From a virus (taxonomy: Duplodnaviria; Caudoviricetes): a DNA stretch of 64,000 nucleotides. The translations under genes were made by a program, and so were the position numbers. The DNA is taken from positions 1 to 64,000 of IMG/VR virus record IMGVR_UViG_3300037067_009128. One strand, 5' to 3'. Below the pieces are notes generated by a model. It ran no database searches. It worked only from the letters and a program-made list of their open reading frames with translations, and was not told the DNA's origin. Of this stretch, positions 1 to 62,301 are shown piece after piece (within the stretch, counting starts at the first letter, position 1; the number at the start of each line of letters is the position of its first letter).

Positions 1-11
1 TCTTCCGATCT
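1..11 (+). other. Illumina adapter remnant (assembly artefact at contig end)
   Basis: TCTTCCGATCT is the 3' end of the TruSeq adapter (GCTCTTCCGATCT) and sits at position 1. Confidence 0.8.
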
Positions 12-86
12 TAATAGAGTATTATCATACAGTTTACTTTGTACAACTTTAGTAATATTACTTGTTTATTACTTACAAATGAGTCA

Positions 87-584
87 ATGAAAAAGTTATT
101 ACTTTTAATACTATTCACATCTTTATCATTTCCACAATCAACTTCTGATAAAGGTATTTTACTGATCAAACATTATGAAGGTTTCAGATCTATTGCTTAT
201 AGATGTCCTGCTAATGTTTGGACTATAGGACATGGTCATACTAAAGGTGTTAAATCAGGTATGATTATTAATAAAATACAAGGAGAAATCTTTTTAAAAC
301 AAGATTTATTAAGATTTGAATCTCATATTAAAAAGAATGTATATAGAATATTGATTCAAAATCAATTTGATGCATTAGTCTCATTCACATTTAATGTAGG
401 ATATAGAATTCAAGGTGAACTTAAACAAGGAATCAATTCAGGGAATACTTCTTTAGTAATTTATAAGTTAAGTTTATACAATAAAGCAAAAGTAAAAGGA
501 ATTTATGTTATATTACCTGGATTAGATAAGAGAAGAAAGAGTGAGATAGAATTGTATAAAAATAATATTTTAATTTTAAGATAA
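87..584 (+). CDS. Endolysin, GH24 phage lysozyme with N-terminal signal peptide
   Basis: EGFRSIAYRCPANVWTIGHGHT (E-x8-C-x5-T triad) and QFDALVSFTFNVG; probable start ATG 87 gives MKKLLLLILFTSLSFPQ. Confidence 0.9.
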   Translation: MKKLLLLILFTSLSFPQSTSDKGILLIKHYEGFRSIAYRCPANVWTIGHGHTKGVKSGMIINKIQGEIFLKQDLLRFESHIKKNVYRILIQNQFDALVSFTFNVGYRIQGELKQGINSGNTSLVIYKLSLYNKAKVKGIYVILPGLDKRRKSEIELYKNNILILR

Positions 585-40580: not shown

Positions 40581-41425
40581 TGTAATACCTCTTCTAATAA
40601 AAATTTCATTCTTTTATAATAAGTATGTTGTTTTGAAAAATTATAACCATTATTAGCTACCTCATATATATAATCAAGATGATTCTTACAATAATTAAGT
40701 TTTTCCATAAGATCATTTTTTGATTCATAACTTAAATAATCTATTTCATCTCTGAATCCTAATTCTTGATATTGTTTATCATAATTAGTTAATAAAACAG
40801 TACTGCATCCCAATGTTTCAAAACTTCTATAATTAATATCATTTGAGATATTTTTATTAAAATGAATACGATAAGAATTTATAGCTCTTACCATGTCTTT
40901 TCCTAATACCCATATATCTTTTTTTAATAAATATTTCGACTCTATTACATTGAACCATTCTTCTCTATTTAATACACTACCACAAAATCCTATAAAATAC
41001 CCTTTGATATTCATAGGATAAATCAATTCATCATCAAAACAATTTGGAAACCAAATTGTACGTATAGAATTCGAAGTTATACAATAATTTTTATTAGCTT
41101 GTAACATTGTGTGATATTTTCCACGTTTAAATTCTTGATTATAAATTTCAATTCCTCTCACATGTGCATCAATACACCATAATAATTTAATAGGTTTGGA
41201 ATATTGACTTAAATCTGGTACCCATCCAGAGTCGTAATTTTCAAGATTTATAATAACATCATAACTATTAAAATTGGGAATCTGGTTAAAATTATGATGA
41301 CCTTTACCCCAAACATCACAACTTTGTCCTAATTTAATTAATGCTCTTTGTGCAGAGAAACATTCTCTAAATTCCCTATTTGAATCATGAATCCCATTCT
41401 CTTGAATAATTAAAAATTTAAGCAT
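40568..41425 (-). CDS. GT-B glycosyltransferase (Glyco_trans_1_2 / CgeB-like)
   Basis: IGFCGS, INYRSFETLGC..LLT, HTYYKRM; probable start ATG 41425 after GAGG. Confidence 0.8.
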   Translation of the reverse strand: MLKFLIIQENGIHDSNREFRECFSAQRALIKLGQSCDVWGKGHHNFNQIPNFNSYDVIINLENYDSGWVPDLSQYSKPIKLLWCIDAHVRGIEIYNQEFKRGKYHTMLQANKNYCITSNSIRTIWFPNCFDDELIYPMNIKGYFIGFCGSVLNREEWFNVIESKYLLKKDIWVLGKDMVRAINSYRIHFNKNISNDINYRSFETLGCSTVLLTNYDKQYQELGFRDEIDYLSYESKNDLMEKLNYCKNHLDYIYEVANNGYNFSKQHTYYKRMKFLLEEVLQCQN

Positions 41426-41927
41426 ATTGGTCCTCTGTATAAGCTGAAAAAGTATTCTCATTTTCATTTTTATGAATAGCAATATCATACCCATAACGTG
41501 CAAACATTTCAGGATTTAAAACTGAAATATGTTCTTCAAATGGGTTACCGTCTAGCGAACCTTGTGGATGTTCTCCTATAGGCATTTGATATATTACTAT
41601 TTTTTTAGCTTTTCTTTCAATGTCACCATTGATATTTAAAAAATCAAACCAAGTAATATGTTCTGGACCATGTAACCAAATAACAGCATCATAGTTAAAT
41701 TCTATCAGATCAATATTTTTAACATCTATATGGTGTACAGTTTTCACAAATTTAAAGATATCTCTACAATTATCTCCCCAAACTTCTAATACAGAAAATT
41801 CTCCCCCAATACTTTCTATATAATTTTGAATACTTCTGTCAGAATCGTGTCTGTACCCAATATTGAGTACAGACTTTACCTCCAATTCTTTAAATTTATC
41901 AATAACGAACTTTATTTGTTCAAGCAT
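41418..41927 (-). CDS. Small class I SAM-methyltransferase-fold protein
   Basis: SVLNIG, VLEVW, YDAVIWLHGPEHI, GNPFEEHIS. Confidence 0.6.
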   Translation of the reverse strand: MLEQIKFVIDKFKELEVKSVLNIGYRHDSDRSIQNYIESIGGEFSVLEVWGDNCRDIFKFVKTVHHIDVKNIDLIEFNYDAVIWLHGPEHITWFDFLNINGDIERKAKKIVIYQMPIGEHPQGSLDGNPFEEHISVLNPEMFARYGYDIAIHKNENENTFSAYTEDQYA

Positions 41928-41946
41928 TTTACTCCTAAGATTTTTT

Positions 41947-42945
41947 TTAATTTTTAACTATAGCACTTTTACCAAAATATTGAAAGTTTAATGTTTTATT
42001 GTCATATATCACATTATCATAAACAAACTTTGAAGGGAAAACTGTAATATTAAAACAAGGAGCTCCAAGATACCCAATTCTCATATGTGTTTGAGGAGAA
42101 TCTTTATACCCCTCAAAATAATCAAAATCGATCTTAATATCATAACTATAATCATTGATTTCTAATCCTAATCCACAACCTTCAATCATTCCTCTAAAAC
42201 TTGATCCTTGAGTTTTAGTTGCTGAAATACCGATAGGACATTTTTCAATGTCAAGATTAGCTCTCATTGCATTAAGCATATGTCCTTTAAAACCTATTTT
42301 ACAATCTTTTATAAATGCTTTCACATTAGATACTTGTCCTTTTAAATCCATTCCAGTTTCTGCTCCTGAAATGTATATATTTTCAAAATTAAATCTATGA
42401 TACCCATTAGGACGATTAACGGGATTAGATTTGATACCCGTAAAAACAGCTTTTGAATCACTTTTTATAATAGCAAAATTTCTAATATTCCAGTATTCTC
42501 CAGCATTCTTATCATATTTTATAGGATCTGTATTAGGTATAACTAAATCAGTAGCAATATGTTCTATTACTGGACTTCCATCAGTTATCCCTTTAACTTG
42601 CAATACAGTTCCATAATCCCAACCAGCATCTTCACCTATTATAGGAACTTCTGTTTTTATACCACCTTTAATTATTGGGTATTTACCATTAAACAATTTT
42701 ACTATTTGATGATCTTCTCTTGCTTTATAGCAAGCATCTTGTATTAAACTAGAACAATCACCATTCCTTGGTCTAACCCAGTATACAGAGTCTTCTGGAA
42801 TATCTGGAATACTCTCTTTCAATTCTTGTAGTGATTTTGCAATGTTAGTAAAATCAGTTTCATAACCTTGAACTTTTTCTTGAAATTCTTTTATAGAATT
42901 GTCTATTTGTTCAAACTTATTATTGAGATCTTCTCCTAGTGACAT
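41947..42945 (-). CDS. Coiled-coil plus parallel beta-helix (pectate-lyase-like) protein
   Basis: DCSSLIQDAC..VKLFNGKY..IIGE..GTVL start; repeating CKIG/CPIG/CGLG rungs. Confidence 0.6.
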   Translation of the reverse strand: MSLGEDLNNKFEQIDNSIKEFQEKVQGYETDFTNIAKSLQELKESIPDIPEDSVYWVRPRNGDCSSLIQDACYKAREDHQIVKLFNGKYPIIKGGIKTEVPIIGEDAGWDYGTVLQVKGITDGSPVIEHIATDLVIPNTDPIKYDKNAGEYWNIRNFAIIKSDSKAVFTGIKSNPVNRPNGYHRFNFENIYISGAETGMDLKGQVSNVKAFIKDCKIGFKGHMLNAMRANLDIEKCPIGISATKTQGSSFRGMIEGCGLGLEINDYSYDIKIDFDYFEGYKDSPQTHMRIGYLGAPCFNITVFPSKFVYDNVIYDNKTLNFQYFGKSAIVKN

Positions 42946-42956
42946 AATATTTCCCT

Positions 42957-43670
42957 TTATAATAATTTATAATTAAGTACTTGTCTATAATTCTTTACAT
43001 CGTTACAAAATTTTGCATATAACTCCTTCCAATTTGGTTTTTGAATATCAAATATCCAGTGTAATGTTTTTATATGTGGATCATTTAAATTAATTTTATT
43101 AACATCATGGTAAGATTTTTGAAATGTAGATATTATTGGTTTAATATTGCCATAAACTAACTTATCATAATTATAAGCATTATATTCTTTATCACAAGTA
43201 TGAATCCAATTAAATTCAAATGCATTTAAAGCATCTAATGCGTCTTGTGTATAAGTATTAAAAGCAGGAATAAAATGGTCTCTATTGAATTTATTGACTT
43301 TAGACATTATATTAAAACTATGCTCAATTCTATGTTCTATTTCATGTTGAGATAAATCTTCAAATTCACCTCCATTAGGCCAAGTATTGATTATATCATC
43401 CCATCCAAATGCATGATCAAATTTATGATTAAATCCATGCATAACAATTTGTCCAACTTTAACTATTGAATTAAATAACTCTATATCTAATTCGTCTATT
43501 AATAATGGACTTACTCCTAGTAAATAAGGAACTTGATTTGATTCAAATATACTTAAAACTTCTGTAATTCTTTCTCTACACCAATTATGATTATAACCAG
43601 GATACCCATAAGGATAATCATCAATTCTAATAACCTGTATTCCTTCACGAACAAAATTATTTACTTCCAT
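42957..43670 (-). CDS. Polysaccharide deacetylase (DUF2334-like)
   Basis: IRIDDYP, LGVSP, MHGFNH, FIPAFN, TLHW. Confidence 0.75.
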   Translation of the reverse strand: MEVNNFVREGIQVIRIDDYPYGYPGYNHNWCRERITEVLSIFESNQVPYLLGVSPLLIDELDIELFNSIVKVGQIVMHGFNHKFDHAFGWDDIINTWPNGGEFEDLSQHEIEHRIEHSFNIMSKVNKFNRDHFIPAFNTYTQDALDALNAFEFNWIHTCDKEYNAYNYDKLVYGNIKPIISTFQKSYHDVNKINLNDPHIKTLHWIFDIQKPNWKELYAKFCNDVKNYRQVLNYKLL

Positions 43671-43678
43671 TTAATTCC

Positions 43679-44233
43679 TTATAAAAATTTAAAAAATTGC
43701 ATTATATGTAATAGTCCACCACGTTCGCCATTTATGTCATAAGATTGATATCTATCTTCTTCATATATAAGTTTAGATGAAAATTCTCCAAAATCTATAA
43801 TTTTAAGCTTTCTATCTGTCATGTTATATAATATATTACTTTCATTCAAATCACCATGAACTATATTTCTTGAAAGTAAATCAATAATCATCTTACTTAG
43901 TTCAGAAATTATCCATAATTTATCTATAAGAGACAATACATATCCACAACTTTCTAAAGAAATATAACTATCTGGTATTAATTCTGTAAATATTTCAATA
44001 TGGTTATAAAAATCAGAGGCTTCTAAGAATTTAGGTACATAATCAATACCTTTTAATTCTTTTAAAAAATCTATTTCTTTATAACCTCTTAAACGATCAT
44101 TATCTACTTTACAAAATGCTTGTCTTTTTTCAGATTTATAATATTTACGATCTTTATTTATAGTTGTTGTATTAGGTATAAACTCAATAAATAAAGGATC
44201 ATTTTTAACACTTATCATTGATTTTTTCTCCAT
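43679..44233 (-). CDS. Protein-kinase-like fold kinase (Kdo/RIO/WbdD-type)
   Basis: FCK, EIDFLKEL, VPK, HGDLNESNIL, IIDFG. Confidence 0.8.
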   Translation of the reverse strand: MEKKSMISVKNDPLFIEFIPNTTTINKDRKYYKSEKRQAFCKVDNDRLRGYKEIDFLKELKGIDYVPKFLEASDFYNHIEIFTELIPDSYISLESCGYVLSLIDKLWIISELSKMIIDLLSRNIVHGDLNESNILYNMTDRKLKIIDFGEFSSKLIYEEDRYQSYDINGERGGLLHIMQFFKFL

Positions 44234-44886
44234 AATCTTAATACATTGTGGTATACACCATTTAATTCATGTACATTAGGTCTATTATTAGCTATAATCT
44301 GAGTATAATCTTTTAAAATTTTAGAATTCCATTGTTCATAATGATCATGCATACTTATATAAGGTACTTCATATTCTGCAGCAAGACCTAATTCAAAATT
44401 CATACAATCACTTGAATGGTCTGAATCATGAAAAAACAAATCAACTTGGTCATCTTTATAGATTTCATCAAAAACATCATATAAAACATTAAAGGTATAA
44501 TCTTTGATAAGTGTCCATCTATCTTTTAAAACTTTAAAAACTCTTTCTCCAGGTTCACCTATTGTTAGTTTATGAGACCCATCTGTAGAATTTTTACCAG
44601 AATCTATTGTTATAAGTTTACCTTTATTATTACGAAACATTCCATATAAAATTGCTTGAGTAGAAGCTCCATTTTGACATCCAGTTTCAATTACTATTTT
44701 AGGTTTTATTAATCTTGTTAATACATATAAAGGAAGATTATAAAATGAAAAAGAATCTCCAGGTCTTAACTCTTTACAAAATAATACTCCTTTATCTATT
44801 TCTTCATTGATAATATCAGAAGCTCCCAATTTTATAACTTCTTCAATAAAATCAGGCTGTAAATAATCTTTTATAATATCTTCCAT
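44215..44886 (-). CDS. Class I SAM-dependent methyltransferase (Methyltransf_24-like)
   Basis: KPKIVIETGCQNGAST, GKLITID, DLFFHDSDHS, MHD. Confidence 0.8.
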   Translation of the reverse strand: MEDIIKDYLQPDFIEEVIKLGASDIINEEIDKGVLFCKELRPGDSFSFYNLPLYVLTRLIKPKIVIETGCQNGASTQAILYGMFRNNKGKLITIDSGKNSTDGSHKLTIGEPGERVFKVLKDRWTLIKDYTFNVLYDVFDEIYKDDQVDLFFHDSDHSSDCMNFELGLAAEYEVPYISMHDHYEQWNSKILKDYTQIIANNRPNVHELNGVYHNVLRLWRKNQ

Positions 44887-45008
44887 TATACCCTCTTTTT
44901 AATTAATACTATTAAAATAATAATAAAAAGTTAATGTAATTATGATACCGAATGCAATCAGTATAAGTCCTCTTAAAAACCAATTATCTTCCATTATATC
45001 CTCTTTTT
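44877..45008. repeat. 24-bp direct repeat (44877-44900 and 44985-45008) flanking a mini-gene
   Basis: tatcttccattata(c/t)cctcttttt, 23/24 identical; contains RBS and start codon on the minus strand. Confidence 0.85.
44899..44994 (-). CDS. 31-aa single-TM protein (not in ORF track)
   Basis: MEDNWFLRGLILIAFGIIITLTFYYYFNSIN; GAGG RBS; TAATG coupling. Confidence 0.6.
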   Translation of the reverse strand: MEDNWFLRGLILIAFGIIITLTFYYYFNSIN

Positions 45009-47057
45009 TGAATATTCTTCATTAGTAAAACAAATCCATAAAGGTCTTCCAATTCTATCTGGGGCATTTATTCCTGGATCAGTGTTTTCTAGACGTTCAA
45101 CTTTATAAAATACATCTTTAAGTAAAGATTCATAAAATACATCTTTTCCATTTCTAATATCATCTGAATGTCCTTCAACTATTACAACACCATCCGTTAT
45201 TTCATTAATTTCTTTTAATATTAATTTTTGATTATTAAAATTTTCAATAATTGACAATAATAATACTACATTAAATCTAACATTATGAAAAACTTCTTTT
45301 GTCGATATATGATTAATATCTACATTCATAAAATTATATCTTAATTGAGGATATAATTCTTTTGACAATTCAATATAATCTTTATCAGAATCTATTCCGT
45401 AAACATTTTTGAATCCTAAAATATATTGATTAACAAAACAACCAAGATTACTTCCTATATCAATTAAGATATTATTAGGGATATTATAAGTATTGATTAC
45501 ATTATTAATTAAATTAATTCTACTTTGTGAATCTCTTAACCCTTCAAATACTATCCCTTCTATTTTAATTGTTTGATAAGGCATATAAAACTTCTTATTT
45601 TTGTATTCAAAAGTTTTGTTATCTACCCATCTTCCTTGTAATTTAGAAAGTATGTTTATTATCTTATTATCTATCATAACTAAAGCATCCTTTAATGGTT
45701 GAATAAAATTCTTTTCTCTATTGTTATTTTCATCAAAAATATCACCTACAAACTCAAAGTCTCTCCTTTCTGTAGGAAAGGGTTTTGGATTAGAGTTGTA
45801 AAAATCAAAATCACTATGTTCAATAGTTTCATCTTTAATAGATGCATATAAATTAGAAAGTAAATCCTGGTCAGCTTGTTTATAATCTTCCTTCTTTGCA
45901 TTTATAAAAAATTTTATATATTTATACAAAGCTCCATTTTTAACTCCCCACATCCCGGCCATTATCAAAGCCGTATGCCAAGGGTGGTCTCTCATTATAT
46001 GGAAATCTTTATCAGATTTTAACCATTCATCAACAGCAGCTTTTTCTCTTAAAGAAAGTCTTGAATCTGTGTCTCTAAAAATAACAATTTCTGCTTCATG
46101 TTTAAATGCAGCATTAAATCTCCATATTGTTGATGACCAATTTCCTAATTCTTCCATTTCAATAACATCAACATTATCAAAAGATTTTAACTCATCAATT
46201 ACATGTTTATAAATTTCTCCAACATAAAATAAACATCTCCAATCGGGGTATATCTCTTTAGCTAATTTAGCATTTTCGATAGCACCTTGTGTGTATTTTT
46301 TATCTATTCCCCACAAAGAGAAACTTATTACTTTTTCTTTGTATGCTATATAGTTAAGATTTAAATATTTATTATATTGTAAATAATCAATAATTCGTTT
46401 TTTTAGAAAAAAGAGAGCACCTGTTGGATTTAATGCCCAATCACCATTTTCATGAAGATTGCAATGCATTCCTCCATAACCGTAATGATCAACATAACTA
46501 GTTCTACTAATAATAACTTTATTATTATATAATTCTCCTACTCGCCAATCAAATCCCCCGTGTTTAGCTATTAACTTTCCACCATGTGTATTTGAGTCAT
46601 CAAGCACTCTTTTTACCATTTCTCTGTCAAGAAATATAGAAATTCCGGGAAGATACTCTCTTATAACTTCAAATTGTTCAGTATCATCAACTGTGAAATG
46701 AGTATGACAATTACTGTTATATAAACTTATTGGAACGTTCCACTTATCATGTAATAAGATTGCCATGTCTTCCCAGTTTGTATCATGGAAAGCATCATTA
46801 TCAGTTAAATAAAGAAACTCATATTCTGAATTATAAAAATCTTTAAAATGTTGTAATCTTTGTTCTTCAATTCCTTTATTTTTACTAATACTTACATGAT
46901 CAGAAAATTGTTTTAACCAAGTTTCATCATATTCAGTAGATCCATCATCATAAATAAAGATATCACTTTCATTTGATACTTGTTTTAATTGATTCAAACA
47001 AAGTTCTGTAATTTTCTTTCTATTGTAAGTTGTTACTGCAATATAAATCTTTTTCAA
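44994..47057 (-). CDS. Three-domain fusion: GT2 + second GT-A-like domain + SAM methyltransferase
   Basis: AVTTYNR..YDDGS..TDND; VISFSLWG..WRF..FRDTDSRL..HIMRDHPWH; YQTI..RD..R..LIDIGSNLG. Confidence 0.8.
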   Translation of the reverse strand: MKKIYIAVTTYNRKKITELCLNQLKQVSNESDIFIYDDGSTEYDETWLKQFSDHVSISKNKGIEEQRLQHFKDFYNSEYEFLYLTDNDAFHDTNWEDMAILLHDKWNVPISLYNSNCHTHFTVDDTEQFEVIREYLPGISIFLDREMVKRVLDDSNTHGGKLIAKHGGFDWRVGELYNNKVIISRTSYVDHYGYGGMHCNLHENGDWALNPTGALFFLKKRIIDYLQYNKYLNLNYIAYKEKVISFSLWGIDKKYTQGAIENAKLAKEIYPDWRCLFYVGEIYKHVIDELKSFDNVDVIEMEELGNWSSTIWRFNAAFKHEAEIVIFRDTDSRLSLREKAAVDEWLKSDKDFHIMRDHPWHTALIMAGMWGVKNGALYKYIKFFINAKKEDYKQADQDLLSNLYASIKDETIEHSDFDFYNSNPKPFPTERRDFEFVGDIFDENNNREKNFIQPLKDALVMIDNKIINILSKLQGRWVDNKTFEYKNKKFYMPYQTIKIEGIVFEGLRDSQSRINLINNVINTYNIPNNILIDIGSNLGCFVNQYILGFKNVYGIDSDKDYIELSKELYPQLRYNFMNVDINHISTKEVFHNVRFNVVLLLSIIENFNNQKLILKEINEITDGVVIVEGHSDDIRNGKDVFYESLLKDVFYKVERLENTDPGINAPDRIGRPLWICFTNEEYSKKRI

Positions 47058-47240: not shown

Positions 47241-47672
47241 TTATATTTGAATCATGGGAACTTGGACTTCCATCATAAGCTTATCTCTTGCTTCATCTTT
47301 TATATATTTATTCAAATAAAATATTTTCTTAACATTAAATGTTATTAAAAGTTTATAACAATTAATACATGGTGGATGAGTTATATAACAAGTTAAAGAA
47401 TCATATTTTCTTTGAAGATTAGAAACAGCTGCAACTTCACCATGAGCACATCTTATACAATGATTATCATGCATTAAACAACCAACATCATCACAATGTT
47501 GAGTTTTTGAGGCAGATGAATTATAACCTATAGCTGCTATTCGATTTTTATCATCAACAAGAACACAACCTACTTTTAATCTAATACAAGTTGCACGTTG
47601 TGAAGCTAATGTTGCTATTCCCATAAATAATTCTTCTCTAGAAATACGTTTATTAACTTTCTTTTTAGGCAT
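47241..47672 (-). CDS. dCMP deaminase (ComEB-like)
   Basis: RATCIRLKVGCVL, IGYN, AHGE, PCINC. Confidence 0.9.
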   Translation of the reverse strand: MPKKKVNKRISREELFMGIATLASQRATCIRLKVGCVLVDDKNRIAAIGYNSSASKTQHCDDVGCLMHDNHCIRCAHGEVAAVSNLQRKYDSLTCYITHPPCINCYKLLITFNVKKIFYLNKYIKDEARDKLMMEVQVPMIQI

Positions 47673-49281: not shown

Positions 49282-49398
49282 TTAATAAATATGGATAAAA
49301 GAAACTAACCATTTTATAAATTCATACCCAAGTATAGAAATAATTGCTATTACAATTATAATTATGATTAAGTCGATGAGTTTAAATTCCGGAAACAT
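49282..49398 (-). CDS. 38-aa single-TM protein (not in ORF track)
   Basis: MFPEFKLIDLIIIIIVIAIISILGYEFIKWLVSFIHIY; AAGGAG RBS; TAATG coupling. Confidence 0.65.
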   Translation of the reverse strand: MFPEFKLIDLIIIIIVIAIISILGYEFIKWLVSFIHIY

Positions 49399-49808
49399 TA
49401 TTTCTCCTTATTTTTAGATTTACAATGTATACCATCATCAGTAGGCCCAAAATGAGCATTTGAGTGATTTGATACTTCAAATTCTATCATACAAAGATTT
49501 GCAACATCTACCAAATATTCTAAATTTCCTGTTTTTTGAAAATTTTCAAGTCTTTCAATACATGAACCTATTCTATCCCATTTCATTCCTTGATTTATAC
49601 GCCAATCATTATATCTTAATGTTCCCATAATCACACGATTAGTCATTAACTCAATAAATCTTTTACTCATTAGAGTTTCTTTTAAAACTGGAGCATCAGG
49701 CATAAACTCTCTTTTCTCTTCTTCTTGTTCACATTTCCATAACCATAAATTATGTAAAAAGAATGCCTCATTACCCAAAGGTTTCTTTAAGCAATTTTTA
49801 TTTTCCAT
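49398..49808 (-). CDS. Putative MazG-like/DUF5664-like dNTP diphosphohydrolase
   Basis: MGTLRY..W, GNLEYLVDVANLCMIEF, all-alpha NTP-PPase-like pattern. Confidence 0.45.
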   Translation of the reverse strand: MENKNCLKKPLGNEAFFLHNLWLWKCEQEEEKREFMPDAPVLKETLMSKRFIELMTNRVIMGTLRYNDWRINQGMKWDRIGSCIERLENFQKTGNLEYLVDVANLCMIEFEVSNHSNAHFGPTDDGIHCKSKNKEK

Positions 49809-49820
49809 TTTTACTCCGAT

Positions 49821-50822
49821 TTATTCAGAAAGTAATTGATGTTTGTCTACTGATTGTAAGTATTCTTTGGCTTGTTTTAATATATATTCTCCTACTTGAG
49901 GAACAATACTTTTACCTATTTGATCTGCTACTCCATTTTCACTCCCAAAGAATTGAAAATCAAGTGGATACCCCATTAAGCAAGCATTTTCTCTATTAGT
50001 AAGAGTTCTATTTTCTGTTGGATGAATATATCTTGTAGAACTTCCCATTATTACTGGAGCAGGTTTATCAAGTGCAAGTCTTCTTTGTTGAGAACCGGAA
50101 TACATTGATTCTCCAGTTCTTAATCTTGACATCTTTTCAATTTGTTCATCAGAATGTTTTGGGAATTTATCATTATATAAAACACAACCTTCACTCCTAA
50201 CTTTTTCTAACATTTCAAATGCAGATCTGATAGTTAATTGACCTCGTTTGTCTTCTAAAGGTGGTTTTAAAAAGAATCTGAATGGGTATAAACTACCAAT
50301 AACAAATAATCTATCTCGTACTTGAGCAATTCCAACTTCAGTAGGGTTAATTCTGTGTTCTTCAATATAATAATCAGGAAGTTCAATTTCTTTCTTACTT
50401 ATCATATGTTTTAAAACTGTTCCACCTGCAGTGGCTTCAAATCTTAAATAATTTCTGACACTTGGTAAGTTTTCTAATATAAATATTATAGGTTTTCTAT
50501 CTATAATTTCTTGTACAAATTGAACATATTCAAATTCATCAAAGTCTTTAGTTTGAACATTAACAACATTTTTACTACTTCTACCTGCAGAACTAATTTC
50601 ACCACAAGATGGACTTCCCCAAACAATATCAGCTTTCATATTGTAGAACGCTTTCAATTGTTGAGACCACATAGTATCTGGGAAATTAAAACGATGTGTC
50701 TTAATATTAAAGTATTTTCTAGGTTCAATTGCCCATAAAGTTTTTAAACCTACATTTCTTGCTGCTAATAAAGAGGCTCCCGCTCCGCCAAAAATTACTC
50801 CAAATGTTATGATCTTTTCCAT
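49821..50822 (-). CDS. C5-cytosine DNA methyltransferase-fold enzyme A (motif X GKS)
   Basis: FGGAG, GSPSC, LENL, QVRDR, RTLTNRENACLMGYP, QIGKSI. Confidence 0.85.
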   Translation of the reverse strand: MEKIITFGVIFGGAGASLLAARNVGLKTLWAIEPRKYFNIKTHRFNFPDTMWSQQLKAFYNMKADIVWGSPSCGEISSAGRSSKNVVNVQTKDFDEFEYVQFVQEIIDRKPIIFILENLPSVRNYLRFEATAGGTVLKHMISKKEIELPDYYIEEHRINPTEVGIAQVRDRLFVIGSLYPFRFFLKPPLEDKRGQLTIRSAFEMLEKVRSEGCVLYNDKFPKHSDEQIEKMSRLRTGESMYSGSQQRRLALDKPAPVIMGSSTRYIHPTENRTLTNRENACLMGYPLDFQFFGSENGVADQIGKSIVPQVGEYILKQAKEYLQSVDKHQLLSE

Positions 50823-51136
50823 TATTTATAATCGTATTCTAATGAGTTGTGTAAAAAGTTAATTTCAGGAATAGATAATTCATAATTAATATTTGAACTG
50901 ATATAAAATTCTATGACTTCAAGAAATGCAATCGATTGTTCTATCAATAAAATTTCTTCTTTGATTTTATTTCTTACTTCTTCTTTTAATTCTTTACTTA
51001 AATTTCCTTTTTCAGTATCAATTATAAGATTTTCCTTTCTATCAATACTTGCTTTTAATTTTCCTATTTTTGAAGTTGAAAGAGATTGAATTTGACTACC
51101 AGAAATATTGATTTTTAATGATTCAAACATAAACAC
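50822..51136 (-). CDS. Hypothetical coiled-coil protein between the two MTase paralogues
   Basis: Coupled ORF, GAGG RBS. Confidence 0.5.
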   Translation of the reverse strand: MFMFESLKINISGSQIQSLSTSKIGKLKASIDRKENLIIDTEKGNLSKELKEEVRNKIKEEILLIEQSIAFLEVIEFYISSNINYELSIPEINFLHNSLEYDYK

Positions 51137-52089
51137 CTCATTATTTGTTTTCCTAATTCTTCAGCAACTGGAGGAGAAATACTTTTGCCTATTAAATCTA
51201 AAGAATCATTTTCTTTTCCTATAAATTCAAAATCTAAAGGAAATCCTTGAAAAGTTGCACATTCTCTTACATTTAAGACTCTTGGTTCAAATGGATGTAC
51301 ATATCTTGTACAATGAGAAGTAATTGTAGGGCATACTTTTTGAGGGTTTAATTTCCTATTATTCTGACCACCATAAAACGATTCACCATATTTTAAATTT
51401 TTGAAACCTTCCATTCTTTCTTTTGAATGGTGTGGATTTTCATCATTATATAATGGAGGTTTAAAATTTAAATCTCTTATTTCTCTTTCATTATCCAAAG
51501 TTTCTAATACTTCATTTACACTTTTAACATGGTAGTTAATAGGCATCTTAAAAGTAAAATTATATTTCTTCTTATATAAAATTACGTAAATCCTGTTTCT
51601 TTGTTGTGGAACTCCAAAAAAATAACTATTGAGATTTAAAAATTCAGAATTGTATTCTCCATATTCAATAAATGCTTCAGTAGGTAAATGGATTACTCTA
51701 TCTTTTTGAAACGAAAAGAATTTTTCTATTTTTGTTAGATATTCAATAATTATAAACTCAGCATTTCTTGATAATAATTTTCTTAAAGATTTAATAAAAT
51801 CAAAATCATCAATTGTAAAGGTTTTCAATTCACTACGATCTTCTCGTTTCATTCCTAATGATGATAGCTGTGCACAAGACGGAGAAGAAATCAAAACATC
51901 AATTTTCATATTATCAAATTCATCAAAATCATCTGAGATATTTATGTTAGGAAAATGGTATTCCCAAGTTTTAATATTTTTATAGAAAAAATCTCTATCA
52001 TCTAATATAAATGAAGGTTCAAATCCAGCTTGTTTCAATCCAAGAATATTACCTATACCAGAAGAAATTCCACCACAAGTTTTATTCAT
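51115..52089 (-). CDS. C5-cytosine DNA methyltransferase-fold enzyme B (motif X GKS)
   Basis: SSGIG, SSPSC, IEYL, GVPQQRNR, RVLNVRECATFQGFP, LIGKSI. Confidence 0.8.
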   Translation of the reverse strand: MNKTCGGISSGIGNILGLKQAGFEPSFILDDRDFFYKNIKTWEYHFPNINISDDFDEFDNMKIDVLISSPSCAQLSSLGMKREDRSELKTFTIDDFDFIKSLRKLLSRNAEFIIIEYLTKIEKFFSFQKDRVIHLPTEAFIEYGEYNSEFLNLNSYFFGVPQQRNRIYVILYKKKYNFTFKMPINYHVKSVNEVLETLDNEREIRDLNFKPPLYNDENPHHSKERMEGFKNLKYGESFYGGQNNRKLNPQKVCPTITSHCTRYVHPFEPRVLNVRECATFQGFPLDFEFIGKENDSLDLIGKSISPPVAEELGKQIMRCLCLNH

Positions 52090-52661
52090 TTAATTCCTCT
52101 CATACATTCAGTTTTATCAATTTTAGCTTGAGTTAAAACCTTTTTAACATAATCTTGTGTTAAAACAGTTTTAGTATCTATTTTAATTATAGGTGCTTCA
52201 TTCATAATTAAATAATCAACTGTTTTCATATAAATCTTTTGAATTTCTAATATTTCTTCAAATGTAAATAATCTTTCACCTCTAGTTTCAAATCTTGATT
52301 TTAAAACATTTTCATCTGAACAATAAGTAATAAAAACTTGAACATCTTTATTTAATTCTTTATTGAAAAGGTATTTATAAACATAATCAATATCTGTATC
52401 TCTATTAAAGAATTTAGAATAAACCAAAGATGAAATTAATCCTCTATCTAGTACAAAATCATATTGTTTAGCTAAAGGAAATATTGAATCAAAGAAAAAT
52501 CTTGTGATCACTTCAATTTGATTCTCATTTAATTTCTCACGTTTATCTAATTTTAAGATATCTAATCTTTTTTTAATAACAGGGATACATTTAATATCAG
52601 AAATCATTTTTGCTAAAGTTGATTTCCCCGATAAATCAACTCCGTCTACTATTATTAACAT
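52086..52661 (-). CDS. dNMP (thymidylate-type) kinase
   Basis: IIVDGVDLSGKST, LDRGLISSLVY, RFETRGE. Confidence 0.85.
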   Translation of the reverse strand: MLIIVDGVDLSGKSTLAKMISDIKCIPVIKKRLDILKLDKREKLNENQIEVITRFFFDSIFPLAKQYDFVLDRGLISSLVYSKFFNRDTDIDYVYKYLFNKELNKDVQVFITYCSDENVLKSRFETRGERLFTFEEILEIQKIYMKTVDYLIMNEAPIIKIDTKTVLTQDYVKKVLTQAKIDKTECMRGIK

Positions 52662-53052
52662 TCTTTTTTTCTCCTACTTCTGTTGAAAAATCTTTAATAA
52701 AAATAATTGAATCATTTGTAATTTTAAACCAATCTTTCAAATCTGGGTATTCATCATCCATTATTGATTTAATTATTTTTAACATATTACTTCTACCAAT
52801 TTGATTATGTCCTTGAAAATGGTCATAAACACATATACATCCATTAGGATTCCTTATAGCCATTTCAATAAATGTTATAGCTAATAATTTGGATCTTCCT
52901 TCTCCTATATGTTCAGTAGGATCTAATAACCATCTTATTGATTGTATATGTTGTTTTTGAGTTAATGTTAATTTATCCGGGTCTTTATCAATAGATAATA
53001 TCTCATTAATATCATTTAATTTTCGAACTAATGTATTTGAATTTATAGACAT
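52636..53052 (-). CDS. Hypothetical protein
   Basis: AAGGAG RBS; GEGRSKLLA resembles a degenerate P-loop. Confidence 0.5.
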   Translation of the reverse strand: MSINSNTLVRKLNDINEILSIDKDPDKLTLTQKQHIQSIRWLLDPTEHIGEGRSKLLAITFIEMAIRNPNGCICVYDHFQGHNQIGRSNMLKIIKSIMDDEYPDLKDWFKITNDSIIFIKDFSTEVGEKKNVNNSRRS

Positions 53053-53099
53053 AAAATACTCCTTTTATTTTAAAAACATTATATTAAATATAATACTAC

Positions 53100-54035
53100 T
53101 TATAATTTAATAACATTAAAATCTAATAAATTTTTTGAGTTTATCGACCAGTCATCTAAAAGTTTATCCTTTTTTAGGTATGCATGTAGTATTGCAAAAT
53201 AATAACTTTTAGCAAAATTACTACTAAATTCTTTATCATTTATACCTAGTTCACTAACTTCATAATTAGGTACTTCGCACAAATCAATTAGGTCATCTAT
53301 CAACTCAACATCTTTTTTAGTAAATGATCCATCATCTTCAAAAAATATCCAATCTTGTTTTATTAGTTTTGTGATAGTATTCTTTACTGAACCGGTAACA
53401 TCTCTTTTCTTTTGATAGTATATTTCAGGTACAAAATGAAAATAACTACCTAATTTTAAATTAGTTTCTGAAGCAACATATCTTTGTAATAATGTATGGT
53501 GAAAAACATCATAAGGTAATAAATTCATAACATCATTAACTCTCATATTAACATACACATCAAGTTCACCATTTCTGTTCATAAACTGTATTGTTAGTGT
53601 ACAAGGTCTTCTTGGATAAAGATCTCTAGTCATAAGATATTTATCATCCCATATATTTAGAATACATTCAGAATATCCTTTTTTAAGACGTTTTATAATA
53701 ACAGGTAATTGAGAATTATAAACATCTCCATAACTATAACAAAATCCTTCAAAATCTTCTTCTTCATTTTTTAATTTTTTTGCCCAATTAGGTCTAAATT
53801 GATAAGCTGTTCCTGGATTATTTCTACTTTCTTTTTGAGAAAGACGATTAACTCCTTCTACAAAACACCAAGACCAATTCTTTCTAATAGATATTAAAGA
53901 ATTACAAGGATTTGTTAATTCAAAAAATACTCCTGGGTAACTCTTAAATTTTCCTACAATTTGTCCTGTTGATTCAAGAGTTTCTAAGATTTTTAAATAT
54001 ATATTATAAAAATTATTTTCTTTAAGAATTAACAT
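53100..54035 (-). CDS. Thymidylate synthase homologue, dCMP-modifying type (hydroxymethylase-like), divergent
   Basis: RPCTLTIQF, MRVND, PYDV (Asp at the TS Asn position), LGSYFH; probable start ATG 54035. Confidence 0.75.
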   Translation of the reverse strand: MLILKENNFYNIYLKILETLESTGQIVGKFKSYPGVFFELTNPCNSLISIRKNWSWCFVEGVNRLSQKESRNNPGTAYQFRPNWAKKLKNEEEDFEGFCYSYGDVYNSQLPVIIKRLKKGYSECILNIWDDKYLMTRDLYPRRPCTLTIQFMNRNGELDVYVNMRVNDVMNLLPYDVFHHTLLQRYVASETNLKLGSYFHFVPEIYYQKKRDVTGSVKNTITKLIKQDWIFFEDDGSFTKKDVELIDDLIDLCEVPNYEVSELGINDKEFSSNFAKSYYFAILHAYLKKDKLLDDWSINSKNLLDFNVIKL

Positions 54036-55071
54036 AATCAACCCAATTTGGATACATTTTTTGAAATTCTTCATGTAAAGGAATCATCAATTCCCTCATT
54101 TGAGGATGTGCAGCATTAGATGTTCTCATATAAAAAATCCATTGCCATTCTTTCAGATTAGTAGTAACAACAATTTCCGTTTTTATATGGTGACTCAATT
54201 TACCTCTAGCTTGTTGAGGTTGAAGACCATAATTTATAGCATTTAAATATCTTGATTCATTAATTGCACAATCAAAGAAGAATTCTTTATCAATATCAGA
54301 ACTAAACTCAAAATTTCTTTTTTCACCTTCATGATATTCATGTTCAGATATGTTAACCCAAGGAGGTATTATATAAGTTAATTGATTTCCAAATTTATCT
54401 TTACTATAATTACAATATCTTGTACTTTCTTGTGAGAATGCAATATTGTTACGATGTCTTACAAGTTCATGAGTAACTCCTCTATCACAAACAAAATTAA
54501 CAGAAACACATTCATGAATTAACTTCTCATCAAATGTTAAAAGTTCAGTATTGTTGAGTTCAAAGAATAAGGTTTGATTATCTTTTTCATATGTATGTTT
54601 AATTACCGGAAAAGGTTCTTTGTTTATTAAATCTTTAAAAAATAATGAGTATTTATTAATTAAATAATAATACAATTCTAAAAACATAAAATTATCTTCT
54701 ATGTCATTTACTTGTTTAATATAATTAAAAACATCAATAATTAAATTTCTAAATGCTCTTACATTTCCTGAGACAAAACATCTATGATAACTATGGGCTT
54801 TATCTCTTGAGAGTTTTAAATATTTTGTTGACATTCCATCATTGAATGTAATAAACCATTTATAGAATGCTGAATTAGTTATTGCAAAAATAAGATTATG
54901 ATGTTCAAGAACTGAATAATGATTTCTTTCTTTTATTTTACTTATAAACTTAATATAACTATCATCAGTAATTAAACATTCAGATTGATAACAAACCCTT
55001 CCGCAATTTTCTATTTTTTTATAAGGGTTATCTTCTTTTATAATTTCAAAATAAGGTTTTATTAATCTCAT
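54022..55071 (-). CDS. thyX: Flavin-dependent thymidylate synthase
   Basis: GRVCY, HYSVLEH, DRGVTHELVRHR..FSQESTRY, AHPQMR. Confidence 0.92.
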   Translation of the reverse strand: MRLIKPYFEIIKEDNPYKKIENCGRVCYQSECLITDDSYIKFISKIKERNHYSVLEHHNLIFAITNSAFYKWFITFNDGMSTKYLKLSRDKAHSYHRCFVSGNVRAFRNLIIDVFNYIKQVNDIEDNFMFLELYYYLINKYSLFFKDLINKEPFPVIKHTYEKDNQTLFFELNNTELLTFDEKLIHECVSVNFVCDRGVTHELVRHRNNIAFSQESTRYCNYSKDKFGNQLTYIIPPWVNISEHEYHEGEKRNFEFSSDIDKEFFFDCAINESRYLNAINYGLQPQQARGKLSHHIKTEIVVTTNLKEWQWIFYMRTSNAAHPQMRELMIPLHEEFQKMYPNWVDYVNS

Positions 55072-55320: not shown

Positions 55321-55956
55321 TTAATAATTACTTTCTTGTCGAAATTGATTTACTCTTGATTTTTGATAATACATATTAAGAATTTCAATAGGTTTCATTT
55401 TTAAAAATAAGATGTTAAGATATTTAATAAAAGCTTTTGATAAAAACGATTGATACTTGACAATATCTGTTGAAACATGAGTACATTTCCATGGTTTTAT
55501 TTTTAAACAATTCATAGTTTTACCAAGGATTTTTATAAAATCTCTCAATTCTATATCAAGAGTTTCATCATCTAATAATTGAGCATCAAGATATTTATCA
55601 TAAGGTTTAAAATCACAAAAAACTTCAGCATCTATACTTGATAATAAACAAAGTTCAACAATAAAATGTAAACCGTCCATCATTTCTTCTTTATAGTGTA
55701 CTTCATCATGAAAATCATCTAAAGCTTCTAAAGCCTCACCAATTTCTTCAACAATTCTCCAAGCAAAATTCTTCAATAAATTCTGATCTTTACCATTATC
55801 TATATTACAAAATAAATTCTCTGGATAATAAAATCCATTTTTAACTTCAATAGGTGCATATTTTATCGCTAATTCATGTTGACGTTTAAAGATCAGAGGA
55901 ATTAGATCGATGGTATCTTTTTCAGAAAATTCTGTGGTATAATCATTAATATTCAT
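55321..55956 (-). CDS. Dimeric all-alpha dUTPase/dCTPase-like dNTP pyrophosphatase
   Basis: EEIGEALE, EEMMDGLHF, KPWK, YYQKSRVNQFRQESNY. Confidence 0.8.
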   Translation of the reverse strand: MNINDYTTEFSEKDTIDLIPLIFKRQHELAIKYAPIEVKNGFYYPENLFCNIDNGKDQNLLKNFAWRIVEEIGEALEALDDFHDEVHYKEEMMDGLHFIVELCLLSSIDAEVFCDFKPYDKYLDAQLLDDETLDIELRDFIKILGKTMNCLKIKPWKCTHVSTDIVKYQSFLSKAFIKYLNILFLKMKPIEILNMYYQKSRVNQFRQESNY

Positions 55957-59966: not shown

Positions 59967-60590
59967 TTAATCCTTAAATAAGGCATCTAGGATTTCTTTA
60001 TCAAGTTTATTATTTGACACTGTTTTGATTATTTTAACTAATTTTGCAATACCATTTCTACGTTTAGCTCCTAATATTTTAGCAATAGTTGTTCTTGAAG
60101 CATCGGGGAATGCTAATCTAAGTTGAAAAGTTTTTCCAGCTCTTTTACTTACACTAAAAATTATATCATGTAATCTGTGTATATCTTCTATAAATCTTTC
60201 ATCAATTTTAATTTCACCACTGTCGAAAACATATTCTTCAAGATTCTCAATTTCTAAATTAGGATCCATTCTTGAATTACAAGTATTTTTTCCTTCTTTA
60301 TCTGTTTTATTTATCTCTCTTATTACTCCTTGTTTAACTATGTGGTATACCCAACCTAAAGCATTGTCCCATCTATTCTGGTCGAATTTGAGTATAGCTT
60401 TCCAGAATGATTCAAATGCTATAATTTCAATATCACTTTCTTCAAATACTCCATGTTTATCATGAAAGTTTTTCAATCCAAAATATTTTTTTATCTTTTT
60501 AAAATAAAACTGTAATTCACAATCACTTGGGGATTTTTTATAATTCTCAATAAAAAGTAATAAATCTTCATTAGTTATTAGGTTTTTCAT
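59967..60590 (-). CDS. Phage sigma70-family factor
   Basis: SDIEIIAFESFWKAILKFD (region 2); SRTTIAKILG (region 4 HTH). Confidence 0.65.
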   Translation of the reverse strand: MKNLITNEDLLLFIENYKKSPSDCELQFYFKKIKKYFGLKNFHDKHGVFEESDIEIIAFESFWKAILKFDQNRWDNALGWVYHIVKQGVIREINKTDKEGKNTCNSRMDPNLEIENLEEYVFDSGEIKIDERFIEDIHRLHDIIFSVSKRAGKTFQLRLAFPDASRTTIAKILGAKRRNGIAKLVKIIKTVSNNKLDKEILDALFKD

Positions 60591-62301
60591 CTTTCTTTAC
60601 CTTTTTAAACTCAACTTGTCTCATTTGAGTATTGATAATTTTTAAACATTGTGGATTGATATTTAATGCAACGTTTACTTGAGGCCCGTTACTTTGCTTT
60701 GCTATGTTAACTTCTATTGCATAATTTAATAATGTAGTATCATAAAAATTTGGATAATGTAATAACATTACTATTCTAGCAAATTCTTCATAAGCTCCAG
60801 AATCTTTTAATTCCCATAATGATGGACGAGGATCTTTTTTCTTTTCACTATTTCTGTTAATTTGTACTAATAAACAATAATGTTGTTTAAACTCTTTTGC
60901 CATTGTTAAATACCTAACAAGAGTTGCACTTACTTTTTGTGCTTTAAATTCTGGAGAATCACCTACTCCTTTTAATCTATCAAATAAATCAAAGAATACA
61001 ACTTTTACTCCCTTTTTAGCTAACATCCTCAATTCGTTTCTCATTTGATTTTCAGATTTATTTGTACCTTCAAGTAAATGGTAATTCCATTTAGATTGAA
61101 TCTCCCAAGCATTTTTTAACTTTTCTAAACGGTTATCAGATTTTAACCAAGAATGACTACCAACAATTTCTTTTATAGGAATACCAGAAATGATTGAATC
61201 AATACGGTCCGATTCTACTTCCATAGTTTGTTCAAGAGCATAACTTGCAACACCAGTTCCGAGGTTACACATATTAGTAATTAGATTCCCTTTAACAAGT
61301 GAATTATGAACTAATATATTATTAGCAATGAAATTTGAATTTTTTAATAATGTTAAATCATATGTATCATCAATATCAGTTAAATCTATAGATTTAATAG
61401 GTAAAAATATAAAATCAGATTCTATTAATGCTATTAAATCTTCATTAATACTTAAATCTTTTAAAGATTTCCAACCTGTTTTAGTTAAAAATAAATGATT
61501 ATTAGATGCTTCTATTTGATATCCTATCTTAGATAAAACTATTTTATACAATTGTTTTTTTCCAGAATCAATCTTATCAATTACTCTATCTAATTCAAGT
61601 TTATCATCATTGTTTTTAGTCCAAATTAAATCTCCTACTTTAATATTTCTCAATTCAATTAATCCATGATTTGTATTGATTAATGAATTCCCTTTTAAAC
61701 ATTTCCCGTTACTTGGACGGCCAGCAACAATTGATATTTCACCTTCTTCAAATTTATAAGTAAGATTATCATCAATCTCTTTAATTCCACAATAAATTGA
61801 AGTTTTTGATTTCCTATCTTCTAAAGTCTTTATCCTGAAATCAGTATAAGTATCACCCGTAATATATTTTTCATCTAAAATTGATGATGAATTCTCTAAT
61901 TTGAAATCTTTTATTAATTGTTGGTAAGGATCTGGGTCATTTTTTAATTTTTTGATAAGAGATTGGCATTCATCTATTGTTTTTCTTCTATCATGCCTAT
62001 CAATAAGAAGTTCAATAAGACTGTCAAGTTTTTCTGGTATGAAATATTTATCTTCAATTGATATAATCTCATCTAAAGATAATACATCCCCTATTAGTGA
62101 TAATTCACTTTTAACAGTATAAGCATTAACATCTAAATTCTTTTCAACTAAATTAGAAATTGCAATAAAACAAGTTCTAAAATCAGGTTGACTAAAATGA
62201 TCATCTGTTAATTGAGAGAGTATTTTTTGTCTAGCTTCATCAAAAGATATACTTAAACCTATAACTAATTGCTCATTTATTCTATCATTACTTATATTCA
62301 A
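60571..62301 (-). CDS. dnaB: Replicative DnaB-like helicase containing a mini-intein
   Basis: DnaB N-domain; AGRPSNGK|S; ALEQ; QINR..RPSLWELKDSGAYEE; IAKQSNGP. Confidence 0.9.
   Translation of the reverse strand: MNISNDRINEQLVIGLSISFDEARQKILSQLTDDHFSQPDFRTCFIAISNLVEKNLDVNAYTVKSELSLIGDVLSLDEIISIEDKYFIPEKLDSLIELLIDRHDRRKTIDECQSLIKKLKNDPDPYQQLIKDFKLENSSSILDEKYITGDTYTDFRIKTLEDRKSKTSIYCGIKEIDDNLTYKFEEGEISIVAGRPSNGKCLKGNSLINTNHGLIELRNIKVGDLIWTKNNDDKLELDRVIDKIDSGKKQLYKIVLSKIGYQIEASNNHLFLTKTGWKSLKDLSINEDLIALIESDFIFLPIKSIDLTDIDDTYDLTLLKNSNFIANNILVHNSLVKGNLITNMCNLGTGVASYALEQTMEVESDRIDSIISGIPIKEIVGSHSWLKSDNRLEKLKNAWEIQSKWNYHLLEGTNKSENQMRNELRMLAKKGVKVVFFDLFDRLKGVGDSPEFKAQKVSATLVRYLTMAKEFKQHYCLLVQINRNSEKKKDPRPSLWELKDSGAYEEFARIVMLLHYPNFYDTTLLNYAIEVNIAKQSNGPQVNVALNINPQCLKIINTQMRQVEFKKVKKDEKPNN
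61303..61701 (-). mobile_element. 133-aa mini-intein in DnaB Walker A (no homing endonuclease)
   Basis: Starts CLKGNSLI, block B ASNNHLF, ends YDL..NFIANNILVHN followed by Ser. Confidence 0.92.

Follow-up and report, generated by a model that had tools for sequence, protein, structure and literature searches.

The gene on the minus strand at positions 53,100 to 54,035 of the Caudoviricetes virus record IMGVR_UViG_3300037067_009128 raises the question of which reaction a thymidylate synthase (TS) homologue catalyses when the residues that clamp the nucleotide in ThyA have been replaced. The window analysed here is the first 64 kb of this 117,325-bp uncultured virus record, which is rated 95% complete, and is AT-rich (GC ∼26%). 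We refer to the protein as A; public databases, including ESM Atlas and BFVD, label A-type proteins generically as ‘thymidylate synthase’. Base modifications let phage DNA escape restriction and CRISPR defences and have repeatedly been the source of epigenetic-sequencing tools. Phage TS homologues that modify a pyrimidine nucleotide are a known kind of enzyme, whose products are at present read from a few residues (E. coli ThyA numbering, used here for all reference positions): Asn at 177 for uracil and Asp for cytosine, Asn at 169 for 5-hydroxylation, and, three residues before the catalytic Cys (C-3), Leu for methyl and Asp or Glu for hydroxymethyl. The A clade is a variant beyond these rules, for it carries Arg at C-3 and lacks the HxY clamp. 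Our answer, which we hold at about even confidence, is that A is an active folate-dependent transferase of a one-carbon unit to C5 of a cytosine mononucleotide, not of deoxyuridine monophosphate (dUMP), and that its product, likely hydroxymethylated, feeds phage DNA.

The longest open reading frame (ORF) for the gene is 53100-54074 (-), and we took the second ATG, at 54035, as the start, as do 27 of 27 relatives and the public gene call. The PF00303 match of the protein is over the cut-off (E 3.4e-9) and covers the core only; four PHROG ‘thymidylate synthase’ families are matched, and the best score against the NCBIfam thymidylate-synthase equivalogs is 32.6 bits, with cut-offs of 108-405. Residue identities were checked at codon level. 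The mapping from Arg166 to His207 runs without gaps, with spacings of 11 and 30 that equal those of E. coli, and is therefore robust. The catalytic residues are invariant in the 28 sequences made up of A and its relatives: A keeps the equivalents of Cys146, Tyr94, Arg166 and Asp169 (C145, Y102, R165 and D168) and has Trp80 as Trp84, while in ambiguously aligned stretches E60 is probably Glu58 and K29 may stand for Arg21. Invariant throughout the family are R142, P144, C145, T146, R165, D168, N171, P174, Y175, D176 and H179, together with Y100, Y102, W84, E123, Y206, K209 and R211. A preliminary description of the locus, drawn from the DNA letters alone, had pointed to the catalytic Pro-Cys (P144-C145) and to a PYD motif with Asp where dUMP enzymes have Asn (P174-Y175-D176). 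Both readings were confirmed, the second in 28/28 sequences, and since Asp at the 177 position is the determinant of cytosine (PMC13326640, PMC8670742, PMC5175136), its choice of a cytosine nucleotide as the type of substrate stands as well.

The phosphate and 3'-OH clamp of ThyA (Arg126', Arg127', Ser167, His207 and Tyr209, primes marking the partner chain) is represented in A by Ser122, Glu123, Val166, Tyr206 and Gln208. The preliminary description had seen RV in place of the RS of RSxD, and EIYYQ in place of HxY. The latter change, which leaves I205-Y206-Y207-Q208 where ThyA has HxY, is family-wide, with Tyr206 and Gln208 at the two clamp positions; the former was correctly read as R165-V166-N167-D168, but the Val is private to this phage and not a family trait, the relatives having Thr (22) or Ser (5) and Val being found at this position in 1/166 surveyed sequences. 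The Arg126' position is Arg in 27/27 relatives and Ser in this phage alone. Lys87 occupies the position of Trp83, which together with Leu143 (here Arg142) seals the ThyA site. All the changes named in that description of a rewired pocket are thus present; Ser for Arg126', Arg at C-3, a fold resembling that of MilA and a second TS paralogue had gone unnoticed. MilA is the CMP (cytidine monophosphate) 5-hydroxymethylase of mildiomycin biosynthesis, in which preference for ribose over deoxyribose is set by Ser to Ala176 and Arg to Lys133', and A176S/K133R abolishes the use of CMP (PMC5175136). The private changes of this phage (Val166, Ser122') fall on exactly these two positions. The likeness is positional, not chemical, Val being isosteric with Thr and lacking the space of Ala.

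An assembly error at Ser122 and Val166 was considered and rejected, since over 53485-53832, a stretch spanning both codons, contigs of an independent landfill metagenome (2018) agree letter for letter, and the Ser122 codon, TCT, is at least two changes from every Arg codon. Fragments letter-identical to the window within 53000-54200 occur in the 2018 landfill metagenome and in a groundwater metagenome of 2022, from which the phage sequence probably came. A decaying gene was likewise rejected: this copy departs from the family at only 6 of its strongly conserved columns, which indicates that it is under constraint.

The AlphaFold model of A, made with 28 sequences (mean predicted local distance difference test score 90; predicted template modelling score 0.91), has MilA as its closest solved structure in VIA-align (Z 28.0, root mean square deviation 2.6 Å over 291/311 residues, model 4..311 on MilA 4..323). 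The next matches were the flavin dCMP (deoxycytidine monophosphate) 5-hydroxylase structures 9iqc/9iqu (Z 20.4), whose identity was taken from Foldseek titles and a tblastn comparison to RB69, and ThyA (Z ∼19); Foldseek template modelling scores of the model against the MilA/BcmA type were 0.69-0.76. Because MilA aligns over the full length, the C-terminal 95 residues of A correspond to its extra helical domain, which sits away from the active site, whereas the tail of ThyA closes over the folate (PMC5175136). With MilA (PDB 5b6d, 5jnh, 5jp9, 5b6e) A shares this whole-length architecture, including the five-helix C-terminal domain, as well as the catalytic Cys, Asp at the Asn177 position and RxxD with Asp169, and the window copy also shares a non-Ser residue after Arg166. 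The two differ in that identity is 19%, that the Asp at C-3, His216/Tyr218, Lys133' and Ala176 of the MilA/BcmA type are replaced in A by Arg142, Tyr206/Gln208, Ser122' and Val166, and that MilA comes from a Streptomyces antibiotic cluster, whereas A is viral and has a basic core.

T4 gp42, which the preliminary description had used as its model, is like A in being a phage enzyme with the catalytic Cys, with Asp (Asp179) at the 177 position, with a dCTPase/dNMP-kinase pathway logic (dNMP, deoxynucleoside monophosphate) and without a ThyA-type closing tail, so that the comparison holds for the catalytic Cys and the cytosine-specifying Asp; the nearest structure, however, is MilA and not gp42. 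None of its signature residues Asp145, Ser94, Arg123'/Arg124', Ser169 and His216/Tyr218 is found in A, and at 246 amino acids (aa) it lacks the C-terminal domain. The best PDB sequence match of A is RB69 gp48/HY126 AfhB (PDB 9iqu/9iqc; E 8e-8 with the single sequence, 1.5e-14 with the profile). These 5-hydroxy-dCMP synthases have in common with A the Asp at 177 and a Thr after the catalytic Cys, and differ by their use of flavin and O2, a Glu at C-3 and a length of ∼235 aa. In all of them, RB69 gp48 included, Asp169 is replaced by Asn, and they are flavin-using (2026 NAR paper, PMC13326640). As the equivalent residue of A, Asp168, is kept and invariant, we rejected an identity as 5-hydroxy-dCMP synthase.

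In the reaction we propose, which borrows its chemistry from ThyA, T4 gp42 and MilA, Cys145 would add to C6 of a cytosine that is oriented and protonated by Asp176, and a one-carbon unit would pass from methylene-tetrahydrofolate to C5 of the mononucleotide, a use of folate suggested by the retention of Asp168, Trp84 and Tyr102. Water would then quench the exocyclic methylene and leave a 5-hydroxymethyl group, in place of a reduction to methyl; this is the most likely outcome because a MilA-type C-terminal helical domain replaces the tail that closes the site in ThyA. The open C-terminus, a polar lip and the lack of dihydrofolate reductase (DHFR) together make hydroxymethyl the most likely product. 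DHFR matters here since a methylase forms dihydrofolate, and in phage Xp12 the DHFR adjoins the dCMP methylase; its absence accordingly speaks against methylation. Judging from gene order and the T4 paradigm, the monophosphate substrate may be supplied by the neighbouring nucleoside triphosphate (NTP) pyrophosphohydrolase, and the dNMP-kinase-like enzyme encoded nearby may phosphorylate the product again for the phage polymerase. Thymidine monophosphate (dTMP) would come by a separate route, ThyX and dCMP deaminase both being encoded, and this route, the Asp at 177 and the equivalog score (33 bits after rounding) uphold the earlier view that A is not needed for dTMP.

Several observations weigh against this reading. 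Hydroxymethylases carry Asp or Glu at C-3 and Ser or Thr two residues before the catalytic Tyr, and in T4 dCMP hydroxymethylase (dCH) Asp145 activates water and D145N abolishes activity (PMC6400193); A lacks this signature, having Arg142 and Tyr100 at the two positions in 28/28 sequences. His207 and Tyr209, which are conserved even in MilA, have been replaced. Binding of a plain 5'-monophosphate should be weakened in this copy, where Arg126', important in ThyA, has become Ser, and Ser167 has become Val. Moreover, the C5-methylase-like genes of the same operon argue against full replacement of cytosine, since such methylases, if they act on cytosine in DNA, need an unsubstituted C5.

Family searches covering 5.8 billion and 1.84 billion proteins returned 27 relatives of A with identities of 40-53% and, at E < 1e-30, 28 representative clusters. 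The same active-site signature, namely Arg(C-3)/Asp169/Asp177/Tyr207/Gln-Pro-His209 with a basic catalytic core, position 209 being Gln, Pro or His, is carried by ∼16 more distant clusters, which brings the clade to ∼44 representative clusters overall. Its members derive from uncultured viral contigs, and the clade is rare and virus-only: in 185,579 species genomes there was a single match, to a contig of 121 kb that had been assigned to a Nanoarchaeia metagenome-assembled genome and is probably viral. No A homologue above 30% identity was found in cultured phages, nor did a 20-kb megablast query match any of them. The isoelectric point (pI) of the catalytic core exceeds 8 in 44/44 members (median 9.2), compared with medians of 6.0 for the B type described below and 6.9 for Asp-type homologues, and with 5.6-5.8 for E. 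coli ThyA, T4 gp42 and RB69 gp48. The neighbours of A in ESM Atlas include a viral cluster of 51 members in which a dCMP-deaminase domain is fused to a TS homologue of the long architecture (444 aa, template modelling score 0.81).

The genome encodes exactly two PF00303 proteins, A and a second one, B, whose gene lies outside the window. B has the motifs RVPC, RSSD, IND, SLHAY and SRR, that is, Arg at C-3 and Asp177 together with a canonical Ser167, His207/Tyr209 and Arg126/127, and has no C-terminal domain. B-type proteins resemble A in Arg at C-3, a Tyr two before the catalytic Tyr, an NPGxA(Y/W) motif and Asp169/Asp177; they are unlike A in their length (∼240-275 aa), RS, His207-x-Tyr/Phe, Arg126', Phe at the Trp83 position and an acidic-to-neutral core. 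In a FastTree phylogeny of 176 sequences, a quick method whose long reference branches make the order among reference enzymes unsafe, the A clade (43 rows, support 100) and the B clade (30 rows, support 99) are sisters (support 86), nested among ∼300-aa homologues with an Asp(C-3)/His/Tyr signature. From their sequences A and B thus appear to be ancient sister paralogues, of which A has had its clamp rebuilt.

We compared twelve related IMG/VR loci (L001-L012), which make 13 records with the genome itself. B-type genes are present in L001-L003 and L006-L012, so that A and B occur together in 11/13 records. The two that lack B reach a completeness of no more than 63-65%, and each of the three with a completeness of at least 92% carries a single copy of A and a single copy of B. 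Just one ORF, of 195 aa, stands between A and B in L006. A B-type gene is the only TS-fold gene of Clostridium perfringens phages (CPD4 and others). In a related 105-kb virus (L012:12040-13986) an intein that contains a LAGLIDADG domain splits B precisely at its catalytic Pro-Cys. Redundancy of A and B is unlikely, given that the deoxyribose and phosphate clamp is canonical in B and rebuilt in A (Tyr206, Gln208, Glu123', KKR and the basic core). The idea that the Arg-Arg pair of B compensates for Ser122 of A was rejected, as B of L001 also has Arg-Arg while its A keeps Arg.

The rebuilt sugar and 3'-OH clamp, the cationic one-carbon site (Lys87/Arg142/Arg143 and KKR) and the uniformly basic core led us to consider whether A-type proteins form a new functional class, with an unseen substrate or nucleophile (ribo- or 3'-substituted cytidine, nucleic-acid cytosine, an anionic nucleophile) or as an obligate A:B heterodimer; we regard this as possible but improbable, and if true it would reveal an undescribed modification of cytosine or mode of enzyme organisation. 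On a rival reading, which we consider doubtful, A would act on ribo-CMP, on a 3'-substituted or higher-phosphorylated cytidine nucleotide or on nucleic-acid cytosine, leaving dCMP to B. The closest full-length structure is indeed a CMP hydroxymethylase, and both positions that decide between ribose and deoxyribose in MilA are altered in this phage. In all 44 clade members His207/Tyr209 have become Tyr/Gln-Pro-His and the core is basic, Arg127' is an invariant Glu, and new invariant basic residues have arisen (K87 at the Trp83 position, R142, R143 and K209-K210-R211), while B in the same genomes keeps RS, HxY and Arg126'. Set against this, the A family retains the deoxy-type Thr/Ser167 and Arg126', at positions occupied by Ala and Lys in MilA and BcmA; Val equals Thr in bulk and leaves none of the room given by Ala176 of MilA; the invariant Arg166 implies that a 5'-phosphate is still bound; and A stands within the dCTPase to dNMP-kinase order typical of pathways for deoxynucleotide precursors, in a phage without the large subunit of ribonucleotide reductase (RNR) that would convert a ribo product. 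To our knowledge no TS-fold enzyme acts on a polymer. The suggestion in the preliminary description of a substrate that may differ from plain dCMP has gained real if indirect support from the clade-wide loss of the clamp, the invariant Glu at the Arg127' position, the basic core and the sister paralogue. Formation of 5-methyl-dCMP (5mdCMP), as by the dCMP methylase of Xanthomonas phage Xp12 (QNN97214) and several metavirome enzymes, is unlikely. It would fit an Asp177-type enzyme encoded beside a dCMP-deaminase-family gene and an NTP pyrophosphohydrolase, a setting that often yields 5mdCMP (5/7 such enzymes tested; bioRxiv 10.1101/2024.12.05.627091), and A lacks the Asp or Glu at C-3 that hydroxymethylases require. 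Xp12 methylase shares Asp177 and the LPYDV motif with A, and its genome too has a dCMP-deaminase-family gene. It nevertheless has Asn at C-3, RS, HxY, Arg126/127, an adjacent DHFR and a ThyA-like C-terminus, whereas A, with its MilA-like C-terminus, has no such tail that would cover the site for hydride transfer. The hydrophobic seal of Trp83/Leu143 has become Lys87/Arg142, PF00186 is absent from the 95%-complete genome (a host DHFR being possible), and the tree places A apart from both Xp12 and the Asn(C-3) sequences.

That A does not stand alone, and is either half of an A:B heterodimer with shared sites or a regulatory or scaffolding partner of B, we hold to be distinctly unlikely. TS-fold enzymes are obligate dimers in which Arg126'/127' come from the partner chain; the window A has neither Arg and the window B has both, the sister paralogues are usually found together, and B occurs alone in cultured Clostridium phages while no near-complete record has A without B. 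Yet the catalytic residues of A are all invariant, which would be unexpected of a scaffold, the L001 pair described above argues against compensation, and the two genes lie here 19 kb apart on opposite strands. Very unlikely, and purely speculative, is an action of A on the 5-hydroxymethyl-dCMP made by B, in which Cys, adding at C6, would regenerate the methylene and the Arg/Lys cluster would hold an anionic nucleophile to trap it. The seeming dependence of A on the co-occurrence of B and the cationic pair Lys87/Arg142 at the one-carbon site would suit such a reaction, for which methyltransferase-directed exchange at 5-hydroxymethylcytosine is a chemical precedent; the folate contacts Asp168 and Trp84 are still invariant, however, and B likewise has Arg at C-3. 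An ordinary dTMP-making thymidylate synthase, finally, is suggested by the PF00303 match and the automatic database names, and we give it almost no credence in view of Asp at 177 in 28/28 sequences, NCBIfam equivalog scores about ten-fold under the cut-offs, the adjoining ThyX and the different C-terminus. Transfer of a one-carbon unit to a cytosine mononucleotide, most likely as hydroxymethyl, remains our preferred reading of A.

The literature searched contained no description of Arg(C-3) clades, of a Tyr/Gln variant of the clamp or of A/B pairing. Arg stands at C-3 in 68/166 surveyed neighbourhood sequences (about a third), the A family included, and for this reason their products are unpredictable today. 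A product assignment for the pair would cover two clades at once and would tell whether one or two cytosine modifications are made by this phage group. The A/B pair is also a natural experiment in the subfunctionalisation of an obligate dimeric enzyme.

Table 1. Coordinates of the A gene, its active-site elements and other features discussed (window positions unless another record is named)
Feature	Coordinates	Strand	Remarks
A-type thymidylate-synthase-fold gene	53100..54035	(-)	311 aa + stop; PF00303, 27 relatives, model
S122-E123 at Arg126'/Arg127' positions	53667..53672	(-)	Ser private to this phage; Glu clade-invariant
R142-R143-P144-C145, catalytic Cys; Arg at Leu143 position (C-3)	53601..53612	(-)	invariant 28/28
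R165-V166-N167-D168, RSxD equivalent	53532..53543	(-)	Arg166 and Asp169 kept; Ser167 to Val private
Asp176 at Asn177 position, within L173-P174-Y175-D176	53508..53510	(-)	invariant 28/28
Y206-Y207-Q208-K209-K210-R211	53403..53420	(-)	His207 to Tyr, Tyr209 to Gln, then invariant basic KKR
C-terminal helical domain, residues 216-311	53103..53390	(-)	matches MilA alpha9-13; pI 4.6 (acidic) in this copy
B gene, 275 aa	G000 73195-74022 (L016:9195-10022)	(+)	outside window, 19 kb past A
DnaB-type helicase with intein between DnaB N and C domains	60571-62301	(-)	Intein_splicing
All-alpha NTP pyrophosphohydrolase (dUTPase_2/MazG-like), candidate dCTPase/dUTPase	55321..55956	(-)	PF08761, phrog_12184
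ThyX, flavin-dependent thymidylate synthase	54022..55071	(-)	PF02511 E 1e-34, RHR...S motif
dNMP/dTMP-kinase-like gene	52086..52661	(-)	PF02223 E 7e-6 (26.3 bits, under 27-bit cut-off), phrog_761, TIGR00041 weak
Two C5 cytosine-methylase-like paralogues	49821-52089	(-)	PF00145; same operon as A
dCMP-deaminase-family gene	47241..47672	(-)	PF00383 E 9e-19; in 5 related loci
Sugar/methyl block between primase/deaminase and PolA	39894-47057	(-)	GT1-like, DUF2334, 184-aa protein-kinase/Kdo-kinase-like, Methyltransf_24
687-aa GT2 + methyltransferase fusion	within 39894-47057	(-)	
Family-A DNA polymerase with weak N-terminal UDG (uracil-DNA glycosylase) match	37103-39835	(-)	PF03167 E 1.6e-4
CMP-sugar-type cytidylyltransferase	L002:9292-10014		CTP_transf_3 E 5e-43; directly upstream of A-type gene, overlapping

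On the minus strand A is the eighth gene of an order that begins with DnaB, a sigma-like gene, a DEAD/ResIII helicase, a 5'-3' exonuclease, the NTP pyrophosphohydrolase, a small ORF and ThyX; it is followed by a 138-aa ORF, the dNMP-kinase-like gene, the two C5-methylase-like genes, a primase and the dCMP deaminase, and then by a block of glycosyltransferase, methyltransferase and small-kinase genes and by PolA. The complete ThyX directly upstream, which the preliminary description had reported, is there, its stop overlapping the start of A by 14 nt; it is not a conserved neighbour, no ThyX having been found in any of the 12 related loci. An NTP pyrophosphohydrolase homologue lies at most 6 kb from A in 6/12 of these loci, and the kinase-like gene adjoins A also in L001, L004 and L005, where the order NTP pyrophosphohydrolase/A/kinase recurs (with ThyX inserted before A in the window). 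A C5-methylase-like homologue is found within ∼10 kb of A in 11/12 loci. We observed that DnaB is directly upstream of the A-type gene in most of them. Two ORFs of the operon, 49398-49808 (-) with 136 aa and 52636-53052 (-) with 138 aa, had no match in Pfam, PHROG or NCBIfam, and for the latter, which separates A from the kinase gene, the 12 related loci contain no homologue.

The sugar/methyl block could decorate a hydroxymethyl base or serve something unrelated; glycosyltransferases occur in related loci as well. UDG-polymerase fusions are known from N4-like phages and also from SP15-like ones, whose DNA is T-modified. A search of the genome itself for an RNR large subunit, DHFR or a CTP_transf_3 cytidylyltransferase found none of the three. 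The cytidylyltransferase listed in Table 1 belongs to a 69-kb relative (L002) that is 100% complete.

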